A DNA stretch of 63,773 bases, filler included, from Collodictyon triciliatum (taxonomy: Eukaryota): the NCBI GenBank assembly GCA_043381765.1. It is 16 parts of 16 records of this genome, joined end to end, with 100 filler letters (N's around TTAATTAATTAA, not from the genome) between each part and the next. Parts side by side here need not be neighbours in the genome. Positions count along the whole stretch, not along the records: positions 21,548 to 25,753 come from JBHJMP010006382.1; 15 more parts are not named here. One strand, 5' to 3'. Position 1 is the first letter of the stretch. Each line of letters begins with the position of its first letter. The position numbers were made by a program, and so were the translations under genes. Under the pieces are notes generated by a model, which saw nothing but the letters and a program-made list of their open reading frames with translations, was not told where the DNA came from and made no database searches. Shown piece after piece: positions 24,136-25,753 of this stretch.

Positions 24136-25753
24136 GGGCTAGGTGTGTCCATTTTTTGAAGGATAAAAAGAACTTTGTTGAGTATATTTTTAGCGCTGTT
24201 ATAGTCCCTTGTCATGAATACACTTTGTTTGCTTTCTGAGCGATTGCATTCTTGACATATGGGACATCTATACAACCTTTTTTTGTATTTCCTTTCAGTT
24301 TCATATATTCTAGTTCTTCGCAGTTGCAGCACATCTTGGAGGTTCTAAATTTATTTACACTACTTTTTCAAAACGTTTGGATAGTATTTTTCGTAATCCT
24401 GATTCGATTGTTGGCATAAAATGTTTCATCTGACATTTTCTGCCCCAGTCTCCTTACGCCGGTACAACATCCTTGCCAAATGTCATTTCAATTCGGTCCA
24501 TAAACAATTGTTCACTTCTATTTGTATTAACATTCAGTCTCCATATCATCTTTCGAAAAGTTACTTGTTCATAAAATATGGATAATTCTATCTGGTATTT
24601 TGATTTCATAGATACATATTTTCGAATTTTTTCGTAATCGACCGTGGATGGATTATGTTTACTCAGGTCTGTCTCTAAATCGATTAAAGATGCTCTTGAT
24701 GTCTCAAACCGCTGATTCTCTTCAAAAGTCATGTGACCAAAAGAAATAGCACTTTGTAAATCTGTTGCCATGCATATCCCTGAAGAATTGTACGTACTTT
24801 TTTCTCGCGCAAGAGTATTTTGTGATTTTTAAGAGATTTGCTATCATCTCTTCTTTGGTGTGTCGCGCAGCGTAATTACTTACCTGTCTCATCCACCATG
24901 CAAACCAAATTAAACTTGCTTGCGTCCACCCCAAATATATTTTTTTTTTTTCGCTAATAAAGATAATCGCTCTTCGGAAAGTTCATCAATATAAACATAT
25001 TCTTGGGTTTTTTTATTATATTTGAATTTTGTATTTGAAATACCTTTCTTTTCAAACAATAATGACACCCCCAAGCCGCCTGTTTGTATCACTATATAAA
25101 ATTGTAGTCTCTCTGACGAAAGACCCTCTTCTTCATTTCAAAGAACTTATCCCATAGTGTCTCTTTGCATCCGGATATATTCTTGAGTAATGATGTTTTT
25201 CCAGTTGGCTAATAGACCTATCAAACATACAGTATCTAGAGTAATATGACATGGTATATTGTCAGTTCTTATGGGGATTAGTTGATACAGTTTGGTTCCA
25301 ATATCCTCAAAAATGTGATTCATGTAAATCAGACATGGAGTGTACTTATTTGGATTGACTTTGGCGTCATATTCGATACCTTTTACAATATCGCTGGGAA
25401 TGATATGATGCGAATGCGTTGTAGCCCATTCTTTATATTGTTCCGGTATTTCAAGTTTCTTGAAGATGGCTCTTTTAAGTTTTGTAACTCTGCCTTTTGA
25501 ATAGCTTCCGCAATATTCTCATCTTTAGGAACTGTTTGATTTATAAAGCGCAGTAGCCTCTTTACAAATTGCTCCTTAATGTTGTTATGATAAGCTGTTA
25601 ACATTTGCTTCGCCAAGTACGGTAATACATGAGACAGCCTAACCAACGGAACGCGTTCTTCTCGGGACAAAAGGAATCGAAAATCATTGAGATAAAAAGT
25701 CATCATGTCATCTCTCATATCTGGATGTTTTAAATCTTGTGGGTTTACCTTTT
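24136..25753 (-). pseudogene. Fanzor1 (eukaryotic TnpB-family RNA-guided nuclease), degenerate; 5' end cut by contig edge
   Basis: Assembled across frames: LPYLAKQMLTAYHNNIKEQF..LLRFIN; PIRTDNIPCHITLDT; IQTGGLGVSLLF; RuvC-I FGVDASK; FRKMIWR; *GDW..MKHFMPT..GLRKIL; RuvC-II VNKFRTSKMCCNC; CQEC; RuvC-III RDYNSAKNI. At least two in-frame stops and several frameshifts. Confidence 0.88.

Follow-up and report, generated by a model that had tools for sequence, protein, structure and literature searches.

We report that the minus strand of positions 24041–25753 in a 63.7-kb stretch of DNA from Collodictyon triciliatum (assembly GCA_043381765.1) carries what protein similarity identifies as a decayed gene for Fanzor1, of the TnpB superfamily. 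The locus is very probably a dead Fanzor1 gene copy that a DNA transposon deposited in the nuclear genome of its host, an AT-rich eukaryote. The whole 63.7-kb stretch that was analysed, here called the window, strings together separate contigs of ~4.2 kb each, arranged in falling length order through most of the window. They are joined by 15 artificial linkers within 4211–61821, each of the form N44-TTAATTAATTAA-N44 and spaced at ~4.3 kb over most of the window. The Fanzor remnant sits on the contig at 21548–25753, which is followed by one of these linkers (25754–25853, no strand); the sequence to the right of 25753 is unrelated and not adjacent in the genome. Since the window consists of unrelated contigs, arguments from neighbourhood are valid only within 21548–25753.

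The family assignment begins with a 157-aa piece of the translation (24358–24828, minus strand, with one TAA read through as X). Compared by phmmer with 1.84 billion representative proteins, this piece gave 754 matches at E ≤ 1e-3, 109 of them at E ≤ 1e-10, with a best value of 6e-33. Many of the matched proteins are 620–650 aa long and align at the same relative position. When searched by tblastn against the window, an intact relative of 634 aa (P0002) gave E 6e-51, and a Fanzor open reading frame (ORF) from a giant-virus contig (L004) gave E 1.3e-60. On such values the homology is far beyond chance. P0002 in turn matches characterised proteins among the PDB chains, namely SpuFz1 of Spizellomyces punctatus (E 9e-37, over residues 14–607) and the Fz1 proteins of Parasitella parasitica (E 7e-34) and Guillardia theta (E 7e-16). 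These were the only three distinct sequences matched by P0002 at E ≤ 0.01; all are Fanzor1, with no Fanzor2 or TnpB chain among them. Thus, by way of P0002, the remnant significantly resembles Fanzor1 proteins that have been characterised experimentally, and neither Fanzor2 nor TnpB.

Further searches touch on this assignment. The Pfam family PF07282 (Cas12f1-like TNB, the former OrfB zinc ribbon) is found in 10 of 14 relatives at E ≤ 0.01, and two of the 14 reach its gathering score. Word-index searches for longer proteins returned nothing for the piece 25150–25518 or, at E ≤ 1e-10, for the 157-aa piece, which is weak evidence, and the C-terminal piece (24100–24344) gave only zinc-ribbon noise against the PDB. 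The fold predicted for the 157-aa piece only is mostly helical, with a pLDDT of 67.4. Foldseek found no match to this fold at E ≤ 0.001, and its ranks 1, 2 and 4 were the three Fanzor1 structures, SpuFz (E 0.15), GtFz (E 0.22) and PpFz (E 1.9). The modelled fragment and its Foldseek ranking agree with the family assignment and are not evidence taken alone.

What is left of the gene was defined with a dynamic-programming algorithm that aligns protein to DNA and permits frame changes of 1 or 2 nt. P0002 and the L004 ORF served as full-length references, alongside P0024 and a 199-aa fragment, P0095. P0002 aligns with 225 identities in 539 columns, and the viral L004 protein with 227 identities in 498 residue pairs (46%) between window positions 25718 and 24111. 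The remnant matches residues ~103–613 of the 634-aa relatives. Homology extends down to about 24111, and the ancestral stop, read from one minus-strand frame, is likely to have been at 24041–24043. At the other end the contig stops inside the gene, at 25753, and it is this, not any biological truncation, that removes the N-terminal ~100 residues.

The coding sequence is broken by nine lesions. Seven are frameshifts, near 25487, 25203, 25097, 24954, 24773–24791, 24366 and 24277–24286. The other two are in-frame TAA codons, at 24876–24878, where the relatives have Lys (GKKLRY), and at 24454–24456, where they have Tyr (AYGDW). The lesions divide the gene into about ten segments, and the single ORF of ~600–650 aa expected of an intact gene is not present. 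P0002 and the L004 protein yield an identical set of seven frameshifts and two stops. P0024 yields the same lesions and one additional stop call at 24956, whilst P0095 agrees on all three lesions within its span. With these lesions the copy is unable to make the enzyme.

The motifs of the family can nevertheless be followed through the breaks in a three-frame translation of the minus strand. The RuvC-I Asp codon (GVD, 24924–24926) is kept; its counterparts are the ‘GADPGK’ D of P0002 and D383 of SpuFz1. Also kept is the RuvC-III Arg-Asp (RDYNSAKNI, 24204–24209), which aligns to ‘RDLNSAQNI’ of P0002 and to SpuFz1 D606. Between them lies a C4 zinc finger (CCNC...CPIC, 24255–24331), split by the frameshift near 24277–24286; the relatives have PF07282 at this place. 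Two N-terminal motifs, YLAKQMLTAYHNNI and IQTGGLGVS, are present on the same strand, and both fall in conserved stretches (consensus ‘TxxxNN’ and ‘QTDGIxxS’) of an alignment, A1, of the 157-aa piece with 14 relatives. Bao and Jurka give the Fanzor1 signature as D-X(125,275)-[TS]-[TS]-X-X-[C4 zinc finger]-X(5,50)-RD (PMC3627910), and the read-through sequence conforms to it, with D, ~195 codons, the TS of ‘FRTSK’, KM, CCNC...CPIC, 15 residues and RD.

The RuvC-II site has changed. In Fanzors, according to PMC10530073, the canonical RuvC-II Glu became Pro or Gly, and an alternative Glu stands in for it. The window copy has Gly at the canonical position (‘GDWG’, 24451–24453), as in Fanzors with the rearranged site, and this residue (G126) is nearly invariant in A1. 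At the alternative position it has a Lys codon, AAA (24350–24352), in a column that is E in at least 90% of A1. In SpuFz1, D383, N385, E541 and D606 are described as holding two Mg ions (PMC10432273). After correction for the numbering of the MBP (maltose-binding protein) fusion chain 8gkh_P, which is 394 off that of native SpuFz1, the P0002–SpuFz1 alignment places these four residues in ‘IDPN’, ‘LDEYKTS’ and ‘NRD’. The corresponding P0002 segments, ‘GADPG’, ‘INEFRTSK’ and ‘RDLNSA’, correspond in turn to ‘GVDAS’, ‘VNKFRTSK’ and ‘RDYNSA’ in the window. SpuFz1 E541 thus aligns with a Glu in P0002 and with the Lys of the window copy, and the Lys therefore replaces the alternative, catalytic and Mg-binding RuvC-II glutamate. 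The absence of Glu from the rearranged site reflects loss in this copy and does not point to another family.

Much of this bears out a first-pass annotation of the locus, made from the sequence alone. It had noted the minus-strand motifs GVD, N-K-FRTSK, C4 zinc finger and RDYNSAKNI, all of which are where it placed them, and had taken the N-terminal motifs and the protein to be of the Fanzor1 type, the RuvC-II Glu to be changed to Lys (AAA) and the copy to be dead. Each of these statements agrees with the conserved columns, the PDB matches of P0002, the mapping to E541 and the nine frame-breaking lesions, and a frameshift-aware alignment, of the kind that it had proposed as a check, runs along the remnant with both full-length references. 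Its account of the gene structure needs adjustment. Five ORFs were said to join into one protein over 24136–25753; the locus and the single Fanzor protein stand, but the segments are about ten and the lower limit moves to ~24111 for homology and, probably, to the stop just beyond.

It might be asked whether a working gene is interrupted here by introns, with a GTAAGT after ‘MVDETG’ acting as splice donor. The hexamer, at about 24884, does resemble a consensus donor, and Fanzor genes are reported to have captured introns (PMC10530073). Against this, the relatives are collinear with the window through every break, the GTAAGT included, and the breaks are frame changes of 1–2 nt or stops within conserved sequence, with no intervening segment that lacks homology. 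We give introns a negligible chance of explaining the breaks. GTAAGT itself was rejected as an intron boundary, P0001 (residues 3–36) and P0002 aligning straight through it. Reassignment of stop codons was likewise rejected: elsewhere in the window, on other contigs, the standard code gives long stop-free ORFs of 593 and 611 aa, and both TAA codons replace Lys or Tyr by single-base changes.

The window copy belongs to a multi-copy family, of which it is a diverged member, as seen when contigs of four public sequencing runs (X1, X2, X3 and X5) were placed on 23480–25753. Contig pieces at 80–99% likeness numbered 308 in X3, 285 in X5, 143 in X2 and 6 in X1, and all lie over 24012–25753. The X3 pieces divide by likeness into 22 at ≥99%, 82 at 95–99%, 123 at 90–95% and 81 below 90%. 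Depth starts in the bin 24012–24087 and continues to 25753; no contig falls in any bin between 23860 and 24011. Two X2 contigs have loose ends at 24036, just past the possible ancestral stop, a weak hint that the repeat may end there. Length differences of 1–2 bases from the window affect part of the X3 and X5 contig depth at, or within a few bases of, four of the seven frameshifts (about half of the depth at one of them, between a fifth and two fifths at the rest), and both states therefore occur among the copies.

The protein databases hold similar traces. Four short entries (P0003, P0007, P0008 and P0149) that share 65–76% identity with the window piece seem, from their sequences, to be ORF fragments of additional copies. 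Two of them, P0149 and P0008 (65–69% identical), are partly out-of-frame translations and therefore derive from other frameshifted copies of the family. The run contigs cannot tell whether this particular copy is transcribed. One X5 contig skips 144 nt (25235–25380, minus strand) in frame, with CT..AC on the plus strand, that is GT..AG on the gene strand; this may reflect a deletion variant, or splicing of another copy. Apparent additional Fanzor fragments from tblastn within the window, at 4313–4432, 37575–37799 and 25916–26124, were rejected as translated ATAC microsatellite and not homology. ATAC repeats at several contig ends cause such false matches with Fanzor queries.

The nuclear location follows from the other gene on the contig. 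A host pICln (Voldacs) gene of several exons lies on the plus strand at 21829–23779, with a putative start at ~21829, a last intron at 23582–23684 and a poly(A) site at 23779. Its exon at 22577–22732 (plus strand) matches Pfam PF03517 at E 2.5e-6, with 28.1 bits against a gathering cut-off of 22.1, and 22729–22872 matches the same family at E 0.077. Contigs of both X3 and X5 contain the GT..AG joint from 23581 to 23685, and a poly(A) loose end follows 23779 in X5; joint and tail together are an argument for the RNA nature of these two runs. The gene converges tail to tail on the Fanzor remnant, its poly(A) site lying ~260 bp away. Since a spliced and polyadenylated pICln gene is on the same contig, the Fanzor copy sits in nuclear DNA, as the first-pass annotation had argued from this neighbour. 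The pICln introns contain, at 22895–23400, poly(A/T) runs and a long microsatellite of (AG)n/(CT)n.

The likely carrier of the gene is seen in its relatives from giant viruses, an association also made in the first-pass annotation. A scan of IMG/VR with A1 found that 380 of 404 candidate stretches encode relatives, the best of them on giant-virus contigs, and a scan of metagenome contigs found relatives in at least 585 of at least 599 stretches among the matches listed. The best matches among those listed have 50% identity over 115 residues and lie on long viral contigs of 57–254 kb. Giant-virus contigs also supplied the closest full-length relatives found, with 46% identity (range 46–50%). 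Three of these contigs carry intact elements of ~3.3 kb (L001 and L002 at 2397–5719, L004 at 2404–5719), with inverted repeats, a DDE_3 transposase and a 634-aa Fanzor1. The ORFs were listed for L001 and L004, and L002 was assessed through its repeats only. In all three the terminal inverted repeats are 32–33 nt long and 97–100% complementary, and end 47 nt past the Fanzor stop. In L001 and L004 the intact 634-aa Fanzor ORF, counted from the first ATG, stands back to back with an ORF of 343–346 aa that carries DDE_3 (E 1.5e-15 and 1.3e-13) and helix-turn-helix domains. The L004 element has TA on both flanks. A preference of the Fanzor1c clade for Mariner/Tc1 elements has been reported (PMC10530073).

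With such relatives, the remnant might be part of an integrated giant-virus fragment instead of a transposon copy spread within the host genome. This would account for the closest full-length relatives being on giant-virus contigs at 46–50% identity, and on one of these contigs, L001, an mRNA capping enzyme adjoins the element. However, the hundreds of pieces at 80–99% likeness cover the Fanzor part only, and their cover stops at ~24012–24087, as would be expected of a dispersed repeat. Moreover, the sole other gene on the contig is the spliced host gene, and an identity of only 46% to the viral genes means that the insertion is not a recent viral one. We leave a small chance to the viral fragment and continue to regard the remnant as a transposon copy of the host genome.

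Several points weigh against the reading of the locus as a dead, transposon-borne Fanzor1 gene. The window piece matches the PDB only weakly when searched directly (Parasitella Fz1 best at E 0.054, SpuFz1 at E 1.5), and none of nine single window pieces has a TnpB or Fanzor domain in Pfam, so that the family assignment passes through one intermediate relative. PF07282 is among the families not matched by these nine pieces, its zinc-finger domain being split by the frameshift, and their only Pfam match below E 0.001 is DUF5958 (E 0.0007), under its cut-off. The RNA label of the runs is a guess; among the runs that share window sequence, none has half or more of the sampled words and none is recorded as RNA. 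As to the carrier, the partner transposase was not found in the window (best tblastn E 0.15), no element end or target-site duplication is shown at the locus, and an inverted-repeat search around it returned only the linker and weak pairs; upstream, the element continues past the end of the contig. Nor is a guide RNA (omegaRNA) recognisable there by Rfam, with no match at E ≤ 1 in 23700–25753, or by a fold test, in which 23960–24200 (minus strand) is unremarkable, with a z of −1.37 that 15 of 200 shuffles equal. No result here supports an omegaRNA that still survives; a decayed one is compatible with the data. The DDE transposase, inverted repeats and TA flanks are seen only in the viral relatives L001, L002 and L004, and with none of these features at the locus the type of transposon is thus taken from relatives at 46% identity.

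The remaining point concerns the lesions themselves. A homopolymer of at least 5 bases (A5, A12, A5 and A7) occurs no more than 15 nt from four of the seven frameshifts, and these four could be assembly errors. Extended to all the breaks, this would leave the gene intact in the organism and make its lesions the errors of a poor draft. The assembly is indeed fragmentary, with its ~4.2-kb contigs and many N runs, and some X3 and X5 contigs differ from the window in length near four of the frameshift sites. The remainder of the X3 and X5 depth, about half at one site and more elsewhere, nevertheless equals the window in length, and the other three frameshifts are at no run of 5 or more. The two TAA codons and the change from Glu to Lys are substitutions, not homopolymer errors, and two of the four close protein fragments are themselves frameshifted. 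Even when the homopolymer-linked shifts are discounted the gene is still dead, because that leaves the changed active site, both nonsense codons and the three frameshifts away from homopolymers. An intact gene behind assembly errors therefore has, in our estimate, a very small chance, and we retain the dead transposon copy as the interpretation of the locus.

On this interpretation, the ancestral protein would have been a TnpB-type endonuclease guided by a non-coding omegaRNA, as published work on SpuFz1 and other Fanzors describes. The omegaRNA would have been transcribed from the 3′ end of the element and would have directed double-strand DNA cleavage, as in the published Fanzors, by a RuvC active site with a rearranged RuvC-II glutamate. 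The presumed carrier is a Tc1/mariner-type element of ~3.3 kb with a DDE_3 transposase and terminal inverted repeats of 32–33 nt, as in the closest full-length relatives. The copy has since decayed, with its seven frameshifts, its two nonsense codons and the Lys at the Mg-binding glutamate.

The kind of locus is well known. Decayed Fanzor1 copies beside host genes are to be expected wherever the family was active, and being common they make this an ordinary find. The locus does flag a genome with a multi-copy Fanzor1 family, 46–50% identical to the Mariner-borne Fanzor1 genes of giant viruses, and this genome could be mined for intact nucleases, guide RNAs and signs of transposon traffic between virus and host. 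It is a tentative suggestion, and one we rather doubt, that this large Fanzor1 family of a freshwater eukaryote has intact copies with omegaRNAs that may remain active, and that it could record the exchange of a transposon between giant virus and host.

Other contigs of the window carry features of their own. A long ORF at 627–4210 (plus strand), broken by N runs, represents a Helitron-type element, with STPR repeats, a Helitron_like_N domain (E 4e-9) and the beginning of a PIF1 helicase (E 1.4e-7). Two adjoining long ORFs on one contig, at 47433–51009 (minus strand), have Roc, Ras and COR-A domains in one and a protein kinase domain (E 7e-37) in the other; the two make up a ROCO-type kinase gene. 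At 39611–40213 (plus strand) a zf-RVT domain (E 4.3e-7) points to a retroelement fragment, and the ORF opposite it, at 39003–39617 (minus strand), has no Pfam match. Two more ORFs, one of 334 aa at 17237–18238 (plus strand) and a cysteine-rich one of 232 aa at 18720–19415 (minus strand), match no Pfam family at E ≤ 0.001.

Among known systems, ISDra2 TnpB, the omegaRNA-guided nuclease of a bacterial IS200/IS605 element, has the same superfamily signature of D...[TS][TS]xx-C4 zinc finger...RD (as given in PMC3627910). It differs in having its Glu at the canonical RuvC-II site (as described in PMC10530073), where the family reported here has Gly with a Glu downstream, and no TnpB chain of the PDB was matched by P0002 at E ≤ 0.01. 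Closer in layout to the viral relatives are PGv-1, the Mariner-type, Fanzor1-encoding element of Phaeocystis globosa virus (Bao and Jurka 2013, PMC3627910), and PUl-1. In the description given there, both have a Mariner-like transposase and a Fanzor1 between inverted repeats with TA flanks, as do L001, L002 and L004. By the same description, with which alone the comparison is made, PGv-1 adds a third gene, for a GIY-YIG nuclease, whereas the L001 and L004 loci have two ORFs. The window copy differs from PGv-1 and PUl-1 in showing neither transposase nor repeat ends.

The nearest characterised protein is SpuFz1 (PDB 8gkh; PMC10432273), with which the full-length architecture is shared, as shown through P0002. 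SpuFz1 and the window family have in common the RuvC-I Asp, the Gly at the canonical position, the ‘[DN]E[FY]xTS’ motif of the alternative Glu, the C4 zinc finger and the RuvC-III Arg-Asp. In contrast, the window copy is distant in sequence and has nine lesions and a Lys at the position of E541. The SpuFz1 elements are without a transposase, whereas the nearest relatives here accompany a DDE_3 transposase. A mixture of full-length and partial loci is described for S. punctatus, where 19 of 42 Fanzor loci are reported to be full length and partial copies also occur (PMC10432273).

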